NCBI GenBank assembly: GCA_963768655.1
Contig: CAVYIM010000007.1
Span: forward strand, 237,201 to 301,200
DNA: 64,000 nt
Origin: an uncultured Chloroflexia bacterium
Lineage (GTDB): Bacteria; Chloroflexota; Limnocylindria; Limnocylindrales; CSP1-4
Direction: 5' to 3'
Under the pieces are notes generated by a model. It made no database searches and was not told the origin of the DNA. It worked only from the letters and a program-made list of their open reading frames with translations. How positions within the stretch are numbered: position 1 is the stretch's first letter; every line of letters begins with the position of its first letter. Position numbers and translations under genes: made by a program. This document shows, in pieces, positions 53,791 to 64,000 of this stretch.

Positions 53791-55227
53791 CTACTTGATG
53801 TAGCCGTACTTCTTCTCGTTGGCGATCTGTTCGGCGTTGGTGTGAGCGAAGGCCAGAGCCCCCGTGCCGTCGTTCTTCGAGAGGAAGTAGTAGTACCCGT
53901 CGGCAGTGTCCGGAGTCAGCGCGGCCGCCAGAGAAGCCAATCCAGGCGAGTCGATCGGGGTCGGGGGCAGGCCGGCATGGTGGTAGGTGTTGTACGGAGC
54001 GATGTTGTCGGGGAACACGATCTGCGCCAGCGGCGTGGTTCCACCGACGGGAACCCAGAACGTGTAGCCCACCCAGCTCGCTATCGGATGCGACTCCAGC
54101 CATACCGAGTCATTCGCGTAGTCGACCGTGGGGTTCGACTCGAGCAGGCCGGTCGGCCACTTCTTCAGGTCGAGCCTGTTGACGTAGACCCCGGCCACCA
54201 GCGGCCGGTCCGAATCGAGCACCGCCTCGGGCTCGACCAGCGAAGCGATCTGCACGGTCTGGTAGATCTGGTCCGGAGTCAGCTTGAACAGCGCCGGCGG
54301 TGCCTGCGCCACGAAGGCGTTGAGCTGCTGTTCGATGAGCTCCAGGGGCGTGATGTTCGGGTCGACGTTGTAGGTGGCCGGGAACAGAAAGCCTTCGAGG
54401 GAAGCGCCCTGCGGCAAGCTCAGCCAGCTGTATTGAGCCAGAAGGCTCGCCGGGGGGTTGGTCGCCAGCTGGTAGTACTGCGCGACGTCGAGCGTGAGCT
54501 TGGCCGAAGGATCGACCGGATTGGCCTCCAGGTACTCCATCTCGGCCACCATCTGCTCGATGCGGAGCCCTTCTCGGAAGGTCAGGCGGACGGTGGGCGC
54601 GACTACGATCGGCGAGATCAGGGCATCGATGATCCCGTCGACGGTCATTGCCCTGCTGACGACGTGGCGACCGGCGATGAAGCTGGACGTCTCACCCCGC
54701 TCGATCGCCTCGAAGACGAATGCCCGGGCGTCGGCGATGATGCCCGCGCTCTGGAGCGCTTGGCCGATGTCAGCTGTGGTGTCGCCATACTGGACTTCGA
54801 AAGGGATCTGGCGGAAATCCTGTGCGTCCAGTGGCTGGGTGAGACTCGTGCCCAGGTCGCTGCGGACGATGTCGGCCACCAGCGGAAGCTTCAGGGCGGT
54901 CGGATTCTCCGCTGCCCACTCGGCGATGGCATGGACGACGGCCGGCCGCGCCAGAAAGTACAGTCCCCCGAGGACCAGGCTGGCCAGCACGAGTGTGAAC
55001 ACGGCGAAGCGCAGAACCGTGCCAACTCCACCCGACTTGCGCGACTTGTAGTCGCGCCGGTCCTCCGTGCCCGAGTCCACCTTGGAGCCGGGGCCCACCG
55101 CCTCGGTCCCGGCCGGATCGTAGCCATCCCAGCCCGTGTCTACGAATGGACGCGGTATGGTCGGCGATCCTTTCCTGACGCCCCGGCGACCCTGGTTGTT
55201 CGGGTCCTGGTCGCTACGAAGACTCAT
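53791..55227 (-). CDS. mltG: Endolytic transglycosylase MltG (YceG)
   Basis: TM anchor; LTFREG, LEGFLFPATY, ASLVEPEA (catalytic Glu), YVNRL, PYNTY, GLPPTPI. Confidence 0.93.
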   Translation of the reverse strand: MSLRSDQDPNNQGRRGVRKGSPTIPRPFVDTGWDGYDPAGTEAVGPGSKVDSGTEDRRDYKSRKSGGVGTVLRFAVFTLVLASLVLGGLYFLARPAVVHAIAEWAAENPTALKLPLVADIVRSDLGTSLTQPLDAQDFRQIPFEVQYGDTTADIGQALQSAGIIADARAFVFEAIERGETSSFIAGRHVVSRAMTVDGIIDALISPIVVAPTVRLTFREGLRIEQMVAEMEYLEANPVDPSAKLTLDVAQYYQLATNPPASLLAQYSWLSLPQGASLEGFLFPATYNVDPNITPLELIEQQLNAFVAQAPPALFKLTPDQIYQTVQIASLVEPEAVLDSDRPLVAGVYVNRLDLKKWPTGLLESNPTVDYANDSVWLESHPIASWVGYTFWVPVGGTTPLAQIVFPDNIAPYNTYHHAGLPPTPIDSPGLASLAAALTPDTADGYYYFLSKNDGTGALAFAHTNAEQIANEKKYGYIK

Positions 55228-55762
55228 TAGCTTCCTCGCTCGACGGGCTCGTCTGACCGAACGCAGACTCGTCTGCGGCTCCGGCTGTGGCGTCAAGATC
55301 GTCCTGAAGTATCAGCGTCGCCGCCTCGCGATCGATGCGGGCCCGACGTGCGTCACGCTGCGCCCCGCTGGGCGGGCCACCTGATCTGCCCCTGGCCGGG
55401 CCGCCGATGCGCTGCTCGGCGCGCACGCTCGTCAGACGCTCGTCGCGGAATCGCAGCGGCAAGCCAGTCGCGGCAGCTACTGCGACCGACCACTCGCGCG
55501 TCCTGGCGGCCTGCAGGCCCTCGCTCCCGTCGGCGTTGAGAGGCAGGCCGACCAGCAGGCCGTCCGCCCGCTGCTCGGCGGCGAGGCGCGCTACGGTGCG
55601 AGCGTCCTCGTCGACGGTCCGCGCCCGACTAAGCGTGGCCAGCGGCACGGCCGAGTGCGTCTCCACTTCCCCTACGGCCACGCCGATTCGCCGCTCGCCC
55701 AAATCTATGCCCAGGACCCGGCGCAACTTTGGGGCGCCTCCACGGGCGTCATCGACGCTCAT
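55214..55762 (-). CDS. ruvX: YqgF/RuvX family nuclease (pre-16S rRNA processing)
   Basis: LGIDLGERRIGVA, VGLP, DERLTS, IDREAATLILQ. Confidence 0.93.
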   Translation of the reverse strand: MSVDDARGGAPKLRRVLGIDLGERRIGVAVGEVETHSAVPLATLSRARTVDEDARTVARLAAEQRADGLLVGLPLNADGSEGLQAARTREWSVAVAAATGLPLRFRDERLTSVRAEQRIGGPARGRSGGPPSGAQRDARRARIDREAATLILQDDLDATAGAADESAFGQTSPSSEEANESS

Positions 55763-57667
55763 GGCGTGGCCGTTGGGCTCGCCCCGGTCGAAGCGGTCGC
55801 CGCCGGCGTCGGAGTGGGGCTCGGTGATGGCGCGGCGGAAGGGAACGGCGTCGCCGTCGCAGTTGCCGACGGGGTCGCAGTCTCCGTCGGCGTCTCCGTC
55901 GGCGTTGGGGTCAGCGTCGGAGTCTCGCTCGGGGTCGATGTCGGAGTCTCGGTCGGCGTCGGCTCGCCACTCGGCGGTGCGTTGCCGGTCGACGTTGCGA
56001 CCGGCGTCGGAGTCGCCGTGGGAATCGGCGCGATCGTCTCGGAGGCTCCGGGGCCGGGCGGCGCGGTCGGTGCGATGAGGCTCACCTTGATCCGGAAGTC
56101 GAACCCCGGGATTGTCGACACCCAGAACGGCCAGGTGGAAACCTGCGCGGTGCCGTACTGGGATAGGTAAGCGCTGGCCTGCGTCGCGGACTTGCCCTTG
56201 ATGGCGGCGCGCAGCTGGTTCACGTCTACCGTTGCCGTCTGGAGCCCGCTGGCGACCACGGGGACAGTAACCACAAATCCGTCAGCGGTCGGCGTCCCAA
56301 ACGTGACCGCGAGCGAGCCGCCGACGAGCACGTGGCCGGCCTGAACCATGGCCTGGATCTTGCGACCGGCGAGGCTGCGCACTGACGAGAGGTCGGCCAA
56401 TGTAGCGGTTTCCGTGGCGCTCGCGGCCAGGTCAAAGCTCAACAGGCCCTGGTTCACGAGCGTGGCCGGGTCAGGGGCGAAGCTGGGATCGCCCAGGCTG
56501 CCCGTCGCGGGAAACAACTCCATTCCCGCCGCAACAGACGAGGGATCGGCCATCTTGGCCTGCGCCGCCGATTCGAGCTGTGCCGTGAGACTGGCTTCCG
56601 CGGCGGCGATATCGGACTGCTGCACGAAAGACGTCACGGTGTGAGTGCCGCCCGACGTGGCCTTCTTGTTGGTCACCTGGTCGGCGACGACGAGCGCCGC
56701 CGCCAAGGAGGCCGGTACGTTGACGATGGCCCCGGCGGGGACGTCCCCAGAAAGGCCCTTCTTCACCGCCGTCACGGCCACGTCGCCAGTTGCCGGAGTG
56801 AACGTGTTCGCGCCGGTGATCACGGCCTTCGGCACCGTGATCGTGGAGTTCGTCGCGAACGCAACTCCGGCCGCGGTCTCAACCTGCGTACCGGCGGGTA
56901 TCACCACGGGGCTCCCCGTGTTCCCACTGGTAAAGGTGACCGTGCCGGTGGCGGCCGTGTCGACGACGTTCTGGCCCGTGGCGTTGAACGTGCCGCTCGC
57001 CTGCACGGCGAACCCCTTGGCCACGCCCGGAACCGCCAGCATGGCGTCGTTCGGAGCGCTGATTCCGGGATCGACCCTGATCGCCAGGCTCACGGGGCCG
57101 ACCGCCTCCTCTCTCAACGTCAGGACGACGGTGGCGCTCGGCAGCAGCAGAAATGCGCCGAGGCCGCCTACGAGGAGAACAGCGACGAGCCCCAGGGCGA
57201 CCCAACGCCAGGCCCCGGGACCGAACCGGCGGACCGTGCGCGCCGCGGGCTGCCCACCGCCGGTCGTCCGACCGGGCCCACCGCCGGCACGCCTGGCGGT
57301 CCGGTCCGCCTCTCCGGCCCCGACCGTAGCCGCCAGCTCGTCGAGCGCGTCGCCGACGGCGTCGGCACCACCTGGCTGATTGCCGGGCGGCCGCGCGGCT
57401 TCCGCCTTCTGGTACTCGGCAACGCTGGCGAAGACCGGCAGATCGGCCGTCTGAGCCAGGGATCGAACCGTCGCGTCGGCGGCGATGATAGCCAGGCGCC
57501 GGCCCCGATGGCGCGCCTCGCGGGCGAGGAGCCGGAAATTGATTCGCGACGTCGCCAGGCGCGAGCCGCCCTGGATCACCAGCGCGATGCGCGTGTCGCT
57601 GGCGTCGCGGATTGCGTGCAGCCGCGGACGTGATCTCGTCGTCGACGTCGATGTAGTAGATAGCCAT
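55759..57667 (-). CDS. Single-pass membrane protein with baseplate J/gp47-like exterior domain and Pro/Thr tail (one apparent +1 indel near 57613)
   Basis: Span 1909 nt (636 codons + 1); MAIYYIDVDDEITSAAAR joins IRDASDTRIALV; TM WVALGLVAVLLVGGLGAFLLL; ATGTVTF...IPAGTQV...VAFAT...VTAVKKG-SGDVPAGAI...VTNKKATSGG. Confidence 0.75.
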
Positions 57668-57671
57668 GGCG

Positions 57672-58934
57672 CTACATCTTCATCGCTCGGAGGACCCGGC
57701 GCAAAGCGACATCCAGCGGATCCTCGTTGGTCTGCAGTTCGATCGCCTGGTAGGCGAGACCGAGCGGCGTGACGTCCTGCTGGTCGACCAGCAGATGCGT
57801 GGCGTCCTTGATCCGCTCGACCTGGGCCGGGGCCATCACCTGGATCTCGGGCAGCCGGCTGAACGGCAGGCGCCTCCAGAACTCCTCGCTGCGCAATACC
57901 GCGGCGATCTCCGGCAGGTGCGAGCCGCCGCCGCACATGTAAACGCGACTCGGCAGCAGGTCGCCCTCGGCCAGCTCTTCGAGAACCAGCTCCACGCCGG
58001 CCGACCAGATCGCGACGTCGTCGGCCACCACGCGAGCCACGTCGGCACGGTGCTCCACCGGCCTGCCTTTCGCGTAGTCGACCTTGACTTCTTCCGCACG
58101 CGGGAAGGGCAGGTCCAGATGGTCCGCGATCGACTTCGTGAAGGCCCGGCCGCCGAGAGCGAACATGCGCGTACCCTCGATTCCGCCATGCCTGACGAGG
58201 GCAACGTCCGTCGTGCCGCCGCCGATGTCGATGAAGAGCGCCCCGGACTGCTGCACCTGCTCGCTGGCCAGCACGCGGGCTACCGCGTACGGCTCGGCCA
58301 CGACCTCGAGCAGCTCCAGGTCCAGTTGCTCGGCCACGCTCTGCAGGGCACCGAGGTGAACGAGCGGCGCGAAGGCGTTGAAGATGCTGATCTTGACGTT
58401 CCGGCCCTTGAAACCGACCGGGTTGGTGACCGGATAGCCGTCGATCTGGGCGCCGGTGACCGCGGCATGGACAAGCCGCACGTCCACCTGAGGCAGCCCT
58501 GTTTCCCACGTGATCGCCCGCTCGGCCTCGCGCAGGGCGTCATGCTGGACGCCGTCGATCAGCTTATGCAGCTCGATGTCTGTTATCGGGGCGTCGGGCC
58601 GCTTGCGTTCGTGGGATCGGATCGTGGTGAAGCCTTTGACCAGCTCGCCGGCGATCCCGATGACGCACTGCGTCGGCCGGAAGCCGGCCATCTCTTCGGC
58701 TTCCTGGAGCGCGATGGAGCAGTTGTCGACGACCGCGTTGATGTCCGTCACCGTGCCGGACTGCATGTGAGCGAGGCCCTGGCGCTTGCGGCCGACGCCC
58801 CGCACGGTGCCGAGCCCGGTCTCGTCGATGTCGAAGACGAGCGCCTTTGCGAACTCGGTGCCGATGTCCAGCGCCGTGCAGGCAGCCAGCGCCGACTGCT
58901 CCTCGCGGCCCCAGATTCTGCGCCAGAACGCCAC
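57672..58934 (-). CDS. FtsA/PilM-like actin-fold ATPase (not beside ftsZ)
   Basis: ALDIGTE, AEPYA, FIDIGGGTTD, GGRAFT, AEEVK and CGGGS motifs; AGGGGAG RBS. Confidence 0.85.
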   Translation of the reverse strand: MAFWRRIWGREEQSALAACTALDIGTEFAKALVFDIDETGLGTVRGVGRKRQGLAHMQSGTVTDINAVVDNCSIALQEAEEMAGFRPTQCVIGIAGELVKGFTTIRSHERKRPDAPITDIELHKLIDGVQHDALREAERAITWETGLPQVDVRLVHAAVTGAQIDGYPVTNPVGFKGRNVKISIFNAFAPLVHLGALQSVAEQLDLELLEVVAEPYAVARVLASEQVQQSGALFIDIGGGTTDVALVRHGGIEGTRMFALGGRAFTKSIADHLDLPFPRAEEVKVDYAKGRPVEHRADVARVVADDVAIWSAGVELVLEELAEGDLLPSRVYMCGGGSHLPEIAAVLRSEEFWRRLPFSRLPEIQVMAPAQVERIKDATHLLVDQQDVTPLGLAYQAIELQTNEDPLDVALRRVLRAMKM

Positions 58935-58951
58935 GGCCGCTCCCCTAGCCT

Positions 58952-61681
<2,730 letters not shown>

Positions 61682-61779
61682 CGCTGATAACGGTACCAAA
61701 CCGCGCGAGCGCCCGGCGCGACCGGGTCAGCTGGGCCACGAACCGGACGTCACGGCAATCCAACCAGGGGGCAAGCGCT

Positions 61780-61960
61780 TCAATCGAGCTTCCGGCGCCT
61801 GCTCCAGATGGTCGAACCGGCGATGGCCGCACCGACCAGGGTTCCCAGAGCCACGCCCCGCGCGAACGCGATCAGCCGTGGATCGCCTGAAATCCCGTCC
61901 GGCACGGCGGCGGACCACGCGGCGGCGAACCAGGAACCAGACCAGCGACCAAGAAATCAA
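61780..61960 (-). CDS. Possible small membrane protein (start uncertain, probable indel)
   Basis: ...DPRLIAFARGVALGTLVGAAIAGSTIWSRRRKLD*; GAGGAG RBS before TTG at 61960. Confidence 0.35.
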
Positions 61961-62244
61961 TCCGGCTCCTCGGGGGAAGGCGCCGGTCCGAGCACGCTTA
62001 TCACAGAAACGAAGGCGATGCCTACCCAGGCCACGACGGAAGCCGAGACGACGTGGAAGTCGCCCACGTGCAGCGGATCGACGCCGAGGCGTCCTCCCAC
62101 TGCATCGCCCGCCCACGCCCCCAGGATGGCGGCACATGCGACGAGCACGGTCCGCCCGCCGGCCCGGCCTCGCAGGAACACGAACAGACCGGTGTGAAAC
62201 AGGCCGACCAGGACGGCCAGCACCGGAGCAGTACGGAGAGCCAC
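61957..62244 (-). CDS. Small multi-pass membrane protein
   Basis: GAGGAG RBS before GTG; three hydrophobic segments; -10 TATACT at 62290-62295. Confidence 0.7.
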   Translation of the reverse strand: MALRTAPVLAVLVGLFHTGLFVFLRGRAGGRTVLVACAAILGAWAGDAVGGRLGVDPLHVGDFHVVSASVVAWVGIAFVSVISVLGPAPSPEEPD

Positions 62245-62321
62245 TCAACTCCTCATTGGGGGATGCCGCTTTCCGGCGACTTCGGCGTGAGTATAGGAGC
62301 CCGTTACCCACCACCAGGCTG

Positions 62322-63427
62322 TCAGGCGACGGCCAATCCCCGCCCGAGCTATCCGCCCGCCCCCGACGACCATGTCTGCGCGGTACAGGACCGCGGCTTG
62401 ACCCGGCGCAGCCGCCGAGACGGGGTCGTCGGTCTCGACGGTCCAGCGACCGTCCCGCGCCGGCGACACGGTCGCGCCGGCCACGCGGCCTCGGTAGCGA
62501 ACCTGGGCTTCCGCGTCGGAAGGCTGCGGCCCCGGCCGGCGGCTCGCCGGCGACGAAGCGCATCTAGCTTGACCTCGAACCGTCTCGTTTCGAGATCCGC
62601 CCGGCGGCCCAGGCGGACGATGTTCGCGACGGCGTCGATCTTCCACACATAGCGCGGTTCGCCAAGCGCCACGCCGATCCCCTGACGCTGCCCGATGGTG
62701 TACGACGCGGCCCCGAAATGCTCGCCGACCTCACGGCCGTCGACGTCGACGACCGGGCCCGGCTCGGCTTTCCAGCCAGCCCGCTCGCGCAGGACGTCGC
62801 GGTAGTCGCCCCGCGGCACGAAGCAGATCTCCTGGCTGTCGCGCTTCTCGGCCGTGACCAGCCCCAGCGAGCGCGCCAGCTCGCGAACCTGCGGTTTGGT
62901 CATGTCGCCGAGCGGAAGACGCGTGTGCGCCAGCTCCTCCTGGCCGAGACCGTAGAGGAAGTAGCTCTGGTCCTTGTTCGGGTCCCGGCCGCGCAGCAGC
63001 TCAAATCCCGCTCCCGGGCCGCGCGGGGCTGCGACGCGGGCATAGTGGCCGGTTGCGACCGCATCGCACTGGTACATGAACCGGGCGCGGCCCAGCAGCG
63101 CCCCGAACTTGACGACGCTGTTGCAGTCGACGCAGGGGCTGGGCGTGCGGCCCTCCAGATAGGCTCGCAGGAACGGCTGCAGCACGCCCGCGTCGAATTC
63201 GGGCTGCAATTCATGACGTAGAAGGGAATCTGGAGCTCGGCCGCGACACGGCGCGCATCTTCGGCCGCGTCGAGCGAGCAACAGCTCCTCTTGAATTCAG
63301 ACTGAGTGTCGGCGACATCGTGGAGTCGCATCCACACGCCGATGGCCTCGTCGCCCGCGGCGCGCACAAGCGCCGCCGCCACGGACGAGTCCACGCCGCC
63401 GGACATCGCGACGAGGACGCGCGTCAC
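62322..63427 (-). CDS. mnmA: tRNA-specific 2-thiouridylase (multiple apparent indels; 3' end approximate)
   Basis: [46 protein letters not shown]. Confidence 0.93.
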
Positions 63428-64000
63428 CCGGCCGTCGCCTCCGCTGCAGCGGCCCCGGCCTCGTGGCCGGGCGTGGCCGGGCGGCCGATCGCCGCCATCT
63501 TTCCGGCTGCATCGCGCTGGGTCTCGATCGCCTGAGCAATCCAATGCCCGGCCTGCTCGATCTCGGCCGCCGTTGTCGTTCGCCCGAGCGAGAGCCGGAG
63601 AGCGCTCTTCGCCTCGTCCTCCGGATATCCCATGGCCGTCAGAACGTGGCTGACTTCGCTCGAGCCGGTCACGCACGCCGAGCCGGTCGAACAGGCCAGG
63701 CCGGCCAGATCGAGCGCCATCACCGGCGAGGCGCCGTCGAGCCCACCGATCACGACCGACACGCTGTTGGCCAGCCGTTCGACCGGGTGCCCGGTCTCCA
63801 GCACGCCTTCGATGCCGAGCAGCAGGCCCGCCAGGGCGTCCCGCAGCACGCCCAGCTGCGACTCTATCGCCGGCCGCTCCGCAGTGGCCAGCTCGAGCGC
63901 GACGGCCATCCCGACGGCCCCGGCCACGTCCTCGGTCCCGGCGCGGCAATAGCGCTCCTGTGCGCCGCCCTGCTGTTGGGCCAGGATGTTCGTGCCGTGG
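63424..64000 (-). CDS. Cysteine desulfurase (IscS/NifS type), 3' part
   Basis: [32 protein letters not shown]; stop overlaps mnmA start. Confidence 0.92.

Follow-up and report, generated by a model that had tools for sequence, protein, structure and literature searches.

The final 64 kb of contig C7 of an uncultured Chloroflexia genome, called the window here (the whole stretch analyzed, 64,000 nt), harbor two adjacent genes between alaS and ruvX. One encodes an actin-fold ATPase of the FtsA family, and the other a membrane protein with one transmembrane (TM) helix whose modeled outer part appears related to the baseplate wedge proteins of phages and contractile injection systems (CIS). Our results suggest that the two probably form one conserved transmembrane module that acts in envelope growth, division or upkeep rather than in a pilus, a secretion system or a prophage. 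What we could show is the fold of each protein and the family it belongs to, the conservation of the two genes and their invariable adjacency, a naturally fused form, and the presence of a canonical ftsA elsewhere; a role in the envelope or in division is what we infer. In the proposed arrangement the FtsA-like protein would most likely lie at the inner face of the membrane, presumably bound to it through an amphipathic helix, and may polymerize there as FtsA does. Its partner would display outside the cell a non-enzymatic scaffold descended from a baseplate wedge (J/gp47/gp6) protein, its inner part being composed of a small alpha/beta domain and a disordered linker.

The FtsA-like gene (57672..58934, minus strand) has a GTG start and encodes 420 residues. 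Its product scored 55 bits against Pfam FtsA and 106.7 bits against the FtsA equivalog TIGR01174, which is below the cut-off of 175.85, and 34 bits against the PilM family TIGR01175, where the cut-off is 133. The AlphaFold2 (AF2) model has a mean predicted local distance difference test score (pLDDT) of 89.9 and a predicted template modeling score (pTM) of 0.87. The best structural match was FtsA 7q6f_A (Z 40.3, root-mean-square deviation (rmsd) 2.6, 353 of 382 residues, 22% identity), followed by a second FtsA structure (7q6i, Z 39.9), PilM (32.3), EutJ (25.3) and MreB (about 24). This ranking, with FtsA first and PilM after it, indicates the FtsA/PilM layout with subdomain 1C, and in the model 1C indeed stands in place of 1B. 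The nucleotide-binding residues D23, G25, D236, G238, G335 and G336 are invariant in 37 orthologs. A C-terminal motif is conserved at the extreme end of the orthologs, and the last 15 residues (57675..57719) form an amphipathic, basic helix, modeled at residues 406-417, with a hydrophobic moment of 0.674 against 0.364 for shuffled sequences. This helix is likely membrane-targeting, judging from the model and the conserved motif.

The same genome has a canonical ftsA directly before ftsZ (C6, 45769-48623), which scored 408 bits on TIGR01174, as well as two mreB genes; no PilM above the cut-off was found in the genome and no pil genes in the window. Canonical FtsA and the FtsA-like paralog occur together in 5/5 other Chloroflexota genomes tested and in three of four genomes of other phyla, namely Natroniella, a Saccharibacterium and a Peribacterium. 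In the fourth, a small Dojkabacteria genome, the paralog alone was detected and no canonical FtsA. A quick IQ-TREE phylogeny of 70 rows (LG+C20, rooted on two MreB proteins) was calculated after leaving out 17 near-duplicate Chloroflexota rows, 3 of the 16 orthologs from named genome contigs and L104, and after dropping at random 41 of the remaining 63 canonical FtsA rows. In it, 39 FtsA-like proteins linked to the pair form one clade (SH-aLRT 98, stem length 2.69) and 29 canonical FtsA rows a separate one (SH-aLRT 97); the single PilM row has a branch length of 5.96, which makes its placement unreliable. Since the protein falls below the TIGR01174 cut-off, belongs to a clade of its own and coexists with a canonical ftsA that adjoins ftsZ at another place in the genome, it is a paralog within the FtsA family and not the divisome FtsA. 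The original prediction, made from the sequence of this locus, had singled out a separate ftsA beside ftsZ and a branch outside canonical FtsA as telling points, and both were found.

The membrane protein gene (55759..57667, minus strand) encodes about 636 residues arranged as a cytoplasmic alpha/beta domain, a disordered linker, one TM helix, a baseplate-J-like ectodomain and a Pro/Thr-rich tail. Baseplate_J (PF04865) matched it with 31.3 bits, above the gathering cut-off of 21.1, although the match is partial (residues 219-323 of the protein, positions 21-110 of 255 in the profile). A search of PDB sequences with the protein gave no real match. The structure was modeled from the in-frame part, P0002 (617 residues, 46-row alignment), the first 18 residues being out of frame in this assembly, and pLDDT exceeded 89 in the N-terminal domain and in residues 158-515, the ectodomain. 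The N-terminal domain, of about 95 residues (57385..57667, pLDDT 89-96), gave only weak fold matches, with Z of about 5, to small Rossmann-like and USP folds and to one STAS domain (7v75, Z 4.8), in a query that lacked the first 18 residues. The TM helix (57148..57210) covers residues 135-155 of the model, and a hydrophobic window at this place is present in all 60 orthologous loci; basic residues precede it, which suggests that the N-terminus is cytoplasmic. The linker is longer where the ATPase is present, with a median TM start at residue 167 versus 133 where it is absent. The tail (55762..56055) is rich in Pro, Thr and Ser and was modeled with low confidence (pLDDT 40-54); close homologues have similar tails, and that it might span the wall is a guess.

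The ectodomain (56068..57141, with a beta-barrel at about 56632-56970) was modeled with pLDDT above 95. In Foldseek searches against the PDB, phage baseplate proteins ranked first: 8kea_d had an E-value of 9.5e-7, phiCD508 9gb2_G showed 29% identity over 115 columns, and Mu 9ki1_O 27%. Structural alignment gave Z 14.8 for 9gb2_G (137 residues aligned), 14.3 for 8kea_d, 12.1 for Mu 9ki1_H (rmsd 4.6 over 113 residues) and 8.9 for T4 gp6 5iv5_A. Against the viral models of BFVD, the entries at the top of the list were all Baseplate J-like proteins. GlxA contains this barrel as well (Z 13.1; rmsd 1.8 for 96 residues). Across the wedge J family, comprising Mu gp47 (9ki1), T4 gp6 (5iv5), phiCD508 (9gb2), diffocin (8v3w) and AFP (6rao), the barrel and its flanking domains align with Z 8.9-14.8 and 22-29% identity over about 90-137 residues. 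On the strength of these models the ectodomain is related to the baseplate wedge protein J of phages and CIS, in keeping with the baseplate-derived exterior first proposed for it. The matches start at about residue 76-86 of the wedge chains, and thus the wedge N-terminal part appears to be replaced here by the TM helix.

This clear structural kinship, the Baseplate_J domain and the presence of a CIS on contig C4 of the same genome would suit a gene left over from a prophage or CIS, or one that serves as a membrane dock for the genome's own CIS. We consider this hardly credible. The gene has host-like composition, lies in the same housekeeping slot across phyla, has no gp25, gpI or other tail gene nearby, and is present in 193 of 201 Patescibacteria genomes, which are tiny. 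Unlike wedge J proteins, it carries a TM anchor where they have their N-terminal part, and it is chromosomal, vertically inherited and single-copy. The genome's true CIS J protein is another gene, on C4, which scored just 20.9 bits on the profile of the membrane-protein family.

Other features of the CIS and of the membrane-protein family were observed. The cluster on C4 (361216-371000) is a complete-looking CIS or phage-tail-like cluster with a sheath, two gp19-type tube genes, a CIS tube, a spike (Phage_base_V), PAAR, gp25 and a Baseplate_J protein of 659 residues. In family f23 (L064-L067 and L070-L072, from genomes of 5-7 Mb) the membrane partners have 880-1000 residues, about 400 of them in a disordered and acidic linker that precedes the TM helix in the cytoplasm, and the family profile matches 3-4 times in these genomes, a sign of possible paralogs. 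In L032, L033 and L035 (family f20, genus g62) the membrane protein has no N-terminal domain, its TM helix starts at residue 82-92, and there is no FtsA-like ortholog.

Both genes are widespread. Among 301 evenly sampled Chloroflexota genomes the membrane protein was found in 215 by a profile search that was a strict first look and sets a floor, and among 201 Patescibacteria genomes in 193. The FtsA-like gene is present in 92/301 and 121/201, respectively, and in 4/151 genomes of the phylum of Natroniella; the Chloroflexota count takes in matches of at least 156 bits, and those next in rank, of 93 bits at most, are canonical FtsA. These tallies include the unpublished genomes G038, G145, G173, G227 and G272 (Chloroflexota) and G458 (Patescibacteria), with G173 and G272 within the 92; no statement on an individual genome depends on any of these six. 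Every Chloroflexota family that holds the ATPase also holds the membrane protein. The family of the latter comprises 7,979 clusters at 50% identity (E-values up to 1e-30). Among the best 120 matches of each protein, identity was 84-95% for the FtsA-like protein and 45-75% for the membrane protein, and the names of close homologues point to Candidatus Limnocylindrales, Chloroflexota.

Gene order is constant. In 60/60 fetched Chloroflexota loci a membrane gene of this family lies directly before ruvX, and in all 41 of them that hold the ATPase the FtsA-like gene lies directly before the membrane gene, and after alaS where that flank was recovered; four open reading frame (ORF) calls among these loci were disturbed by frame breaks or contig ends. 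The pair is adjacent in 15/15 testable ortholog loci of named genomes, from Peribacteria, Saccharibacteria, Dojkabacteria, Dormiibacterota and the cultured Natroniella sp. ANB-PHB2, the sixteenth locus stopping at a contig end, and in 12/12 two-gene loci of Patescibacteria. The conservation expected of the pair at the outset is therefore seen across phyla. We take the module to be an old one that has been passed on vertically within Chloroflexota and Patescibacteria. The ATPase of L099, titled Candidatus Dormiibacterota, is nearly identical to that of G182 (L074), which is counted as Chloroflexota; taxonomies draw the phylum border differently, and Dormiibacterota is therefore not an independent phylum in these counts.

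That the two proteins act together is indicated by natural fusions. In eight Patescibacteria loci without a strong ATPase match, a single ORF of 699-804 residues directly follows alaS and encodes an N-terminal core of about 260 residues, a linker, a TM helix and a baseplate-like ectodomain. Aligned by hhalign to the FtsA-like family, the N-terminal cores gave a probability of 98.2% (E 5.5e-14, 223 columns), with subdomains 1C and 2B deleted and the ATP motifs lost. The profile of the FtsA-like family matches the N-terminal part in six of the eight; Pfam recognized Baseplate_J alone in 8/8, and a PDB sequence search with a profile of the fused N-domain returned chance-level matches. The actin kinship of these cores is thus drawn from our own family profile and from hhalign. 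Natural fusions are a classical sign that two proteins work in the same complex, in a manner that they leave unspecified. Together with the constant adjacency they make a working partnership of the FtsA-like protein and the membrane protein well supported. The core of the original prediction, in which an actin-like protein teams up with an outer scaffold derived from a baseplate, is thus supported as a partnership, whereas the positioning of the scaffold by the actin, also part of that prediction, is conjectural. An apparent fusion of 1013 residues in G498 is an artefact that arose from masked bases separating alaS from the ATPase gene.

An actin-fold cytoplasmic protein paired or fused with a bitopic protein is also the layout of PilM-PilN (2ych) and GspL, and the fused Patescibacteria form, a nucleotide-blind actin core followed by a TM helix and an outer domain, mirrors GspL. 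The pair could accordingly be the alignment component of a type IV pilus or of a secretion machine. Among the structural matches of the ATPase, PilM ranks second (Z 32), and a Saccharibacterial gene in the same slot has been annotated as 'PilM' (PMC10633639). Such a role is nevertheless very unlikely. The protein lies far below the PilM cut-off, its partner has an outer domain of the baseplate-J type and not of the PilN/GspL type, and no pilus or secretion genes are linked to the pair. The genome's T2SSE ATPase belongs to a distant Tad/Flp locus, and PilM exceeds its cut-off in 1/151 Chloroflexota genomes. Two Saccharibacteria encode other PilM proteins: in the accessible portion of a study of TM7x both pilus loci hold their own PilM, PilN and PilO (PMC11623550), and Southlakia epibionticum has a separate PF11104 PilM, SEML1_0104. 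The Tad/Flp locus of the present genome (C3:182000-188000) encodes RcpC/CpaB, a response-regulator/ParA-like TadZ, a CpaF-type ATPase and two T2SSF proteins, and adjoins a histidine kinase gene.

Two other actin systems offer parallels. FtsN has a short cytoplasmic peptide and a SPOR domain, and the domains of RodZ are unrelated to those of the membrane partner. With FtsA-FtsN (7q6f, 7q6i) the pair shares an ATPase for which FtsA is the best structural match over about 353 residues. This ATPase keeps subdomain 1C and an intact ATP site and ends in an amphipathic helix, and its partner spans the membrane once, with the N-terminus in the cytoplasm. However, the ATPase is below the equivalog cut-off, in a separate clade, and encoded between alaS and ruvX rather than beside ftsZ, and the partner, unlike FtsN, combines a folded domain in the cytoplasm with an ectodomain of the baseplate type. 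MreB-RodZ (2wus) resembles the pair in coupling a bacterial actin to a bitopic adaptor with a folded domain on the cytoplasmic side, in a context of envelope growth. The match to MreB is weaker (Z about 24), though, MreB has no 1C, and the genome has two mreB genes of its own.

Hints of an envelope role come from flanking genes and from published transposon sequencing (Tn-seq). In 8/8 fused loci a sortase gene follows the fused gene, and then ruvX and mltG; at one of them, L198 (G470:C3), a polysaccharide deacetylase gene comes after the sortase gene, another wall-modifying neighbor. MltG tends to be present or absent along with the membrane protein: among the genomes listed, G213 is the only one with the membrane protein but no match to MltG, and small-genome families without MltG are also without the membrane protein, for example f19 (0/9 for both). 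In the accessible portion of a survey of Chloroflexota (PMC10608941), Dehalococcoidia, with which f19 is not equated here, are described as having no peptidoglycan and as lacking most dcw genes.

In the Saccharibacterium S. epibionticum, a Tn-seq study (Wang et al. 2023; PMC10633639, Table S1) covers a syntenic locus with the order cysteine desulfurase, YdcF, MnmA, AlaS, 'PilM', 'baseplate J/gp47 family protein', RuvX and MltG, where 'PilM' has 427 residues and is assigned to KO K03590, and the baseplate J/gp47 protein has 556. Apart from YdcF this order matches that of the window, and the shared synteny (window 53791-64000 versus SEML1_0653-0660) is unusually long for groups as distant as Chloroflexota and Saccharibacteria. 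The baseplate-like gene, listed as core and Patescibacteria-enriched, was called NE/ES/ES, with 48, 25, 7 and 2 insertions; the FtsA-like gene was called NE/NE/GD, with 2427, 660 and 221 normalized reads; RuvX was called NE/ES/ES and MltG NE/NE/NE (PMC10633639). Over passage, then, the baseplate-like gene is called essential and the FtsA-like gene is called as giving a growth defect (PMC10633639). Table S2 of the same study annotates the domains of the baseplate-like protein as SpoIIaa-like (residues 6-105, at 0.888), beta-barrel, G3P pilus-binding-like and gp6 domain III (PMC10633639), and these labels agree overall with our model of the membrane protein, in which the likeness of the N-domain to a STAS fold is weak. 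Neither the words baseplate, FtsA and PilM nor the locus tags of the two genes (SEML1_0655 and SEML1_0656) occur in the main text.

The same facts might point, instead of to wall growth or division, to a scaffold for surface display or contact, one that organizes sortase-dependent anchoring or, in epibiotic bacteria of the candidate phyla radiation (CPR), contact with the host cell. Besides the sortase gene downstream of the fused form, the near-universal presence of the membrane-protein family in Patescibacteria, the essentiality of the baseplate-like gene for epibiotic growth and an ectodomain fold of the binding type, non-enzymatic, speak for it. We nevertheless judge it rather unlikely. 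The Chloroflexota holders of the membrane protein include large-genome lineages, the operon in the window has no sortase, the genome has one weak, distant sortase match, and no sorting signal was seen at the end of the window's membrane protein.

RuvX is a pre-16S rRNA nuclease, and the membrane protein lies beside ruvX with or without the ATPase; for these reasons RuvX is probably not part of the module. Its inclusion in a four-gene machine, as first envisaged, is not upheld, and ruvX and alaS are better regarded as old flanks of the slot than as parts of the module. The position of mltG is less clear, as it may be functionally linked to the pair or a mere neighbor.

Several observations weigh against an envelope module made of these two proteins. 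The linkage of mltG may be inherited gene order only, and the joint absence of MltG and the membrane protein is weak evidence because it occurs in related small-genome lineages with many gene losses. Moreover, in S. epibionticum mltG is non-essential where the baseplate-like gene is essential, and the local wall cleavage by MltG that had been suggested is not supported. The Tn-seq calls could reflect polar effects on the essential ruvX, although insertions further upstream, in the FtsA-like gene, were tolerated, and the SEML1 genes are taken as orthologs because of their annotation, length, domain labels and order. The score of the amphipathic helix is modest, since 4.9% of shuffles were equally high. 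The membrane protein occurs without the FtsA-like gene in about 123 of its 215 Chloroflexota holders and about 72 of its 193 Patescibacteria holders, and therefore the ATPase is dispensable for the membrane protein's job. In the fused form the actin core takes the place of the N-domain rather than joining it, and the fusion fits alternative cytoplasmic modules as well as binding partners. The cytoplasmic N-domain is found whether or not the ATPase is, and no signal of co-variation was seen; the expectation that it would be exclusive to loci with the ATPase was rejected, as it is present in 16/19 loci without it and missing only in L032, L033 and L035. No linker motif that tracks the ATPase was seen in the linkers examined. 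Physical contact between the two proteins is presumed. Complex predictions for the intact pair of G178, from the same genus (FtsA-like protein with partner residues 1-150), scored 0.69, 0.71 and 0.69, and one unrelated control 0.55, a result that weighs on neither side.

Alternatively, the two genes would be neighbors only, the FtsA-like protein acting as a second, perhaps condition-specific, membrane tether for FtsZ or the divisome, and the baseplate-like protein having an unrelated surface role. The fold and motifs of FtsA, with the 1C subdomain retained, the many genomes with the membrane protein and no ATPase, and an N-domain that does not co-vary with it fit such an arrangement. Yet the ATPase gene is directly upstream of the membrane gene in every locus of the three sets described above (41/41, 15/15 and 12/12), the ATPase is never in a family without the membrane protein, and the two are fused into one protein in eight loci. 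Against fusion and constant adjacency, independent neighbors are hard to hold to, and we regard this explanation as unlikely.

The preferred reading, a module in envelope growth, division or upkeep, may be taken further, to a possibility that we put forward tentatively. The pair would then be an ancient, unrecognized envelope machine of Chloroflexota and Patescibacteria, in which a membrane-bound FtsA-like filament orders external rings or arrays of the wedge-derived ectodomains, which in turn pattern the deposition of wall material or of surface proteins, for example in division or polar budding, and which would be essential in most CPR bacteria. Few uncharacterized proteins are kept so widely as the membrane protein in genomes as reduced as those of Patescibacteria, which are among the smallest of free or epibiotic bacteria. 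The published Saccharibacterium Tn-seq already points to essentiality, in a paper whose main text names neither gene. If the reading is true, the pair would be a fourth system of a bacterial actin with a bitopic adaptor, beside FtsA-FtsN, PilM-PilN and MreB-RodZ, and would show a fold from phage baseplates put to use in a core function of the cell. Databases carry annotations for the pair, and a full-text literature search, with bioRxiv supplements outside its reach, found no published study of it. The idea is testable, as Saccharibacteria are genetically manipulable and a cultured Natroniella holds the pair.

In the window, alaS, the FtsA-like gene, the membrane gene, ruvX and mltG follow each other in this order in the direction of transcription, all on the minus strand. 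Gaps of 17 nt (alaS/FtsA-like gene) and 4 nt (FtsA-like gene/membrane gene) are followed by overlaps of 4 nt (membrane gene/ruvX) and 14 nt (ruvX/mltG, with an ATG start of mltG at 55227; 83 nt with a TTG start at 55296), so the tight coupling of four genes after alaS reported earlier is confirmed. The alanyl-tRNA synthetase gene, alaS, forms the upstream flank (58952..61600, the upper end being approximate) and was recognized by tRNA-synt_2c, tRNA_SAD and DHHA1 matches in different frames. Downstream, ruvX (YqgF; 55214..55762) scored 106 bits on PF03652 and 76.3 bits on TIGR00250, above the curated cut-offs of 29.2 and 43.25. The YceG-like endolytic transglycosylase gene mltG (53791..55227) encodes a long N-terminal cytoplasmic stretch and a TM helix, and scored 199.7 bits on PF02618 (cut-off 32.4) and 130.8 bits on TIGR00247 (cut-off 103.4). 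A promoter and terminator scan of the locus gave nothing exceeding the shuffled expectation.

The region lies at a contig end of low quality. Window positions 56439-64000 (C7:293639-301200) overlap C6:303324-310894 in reverse over 7.6 kb, at 96% identity and with many indels; C7 and C6 are neighboring contigs, both ends of which are poorly polished. A second copy of the pair on C6, at first taken for a 90%-identical paralog, is this error-rich overlapping end, and the C6 copy is full of frame breaks. In the window, the alaS sequence is spread across three or more frames and that of mnmA (62349-63949) across two. The membrane gene has one extra base at 57612..57614 compared with 4/4 relatives, the C6 copy among them, and its frame is lost after codon 18. 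The noisy, overlapping contig end accounts for these changes of frame: those in alaS and mnmA are probably contig-end noise and not gene decay, and the insertion in the membrane gene is a probable assembly error, because the relatives do not have the extra base and the N-termini of homologues are intact.

Regional GC (0.65-0.71) is close to that of the contigs of the same genome (0.67-0.69), which bears out the host-like composition claimed before. No phage tail or pilus genes were found near the pair in the window, again as first read. The neighbors are all housekeeping genes, with an M24 peptidase gene, efp, xseA and dxs downstream, and mnmA and a class-V aminotransferase gene upstream.

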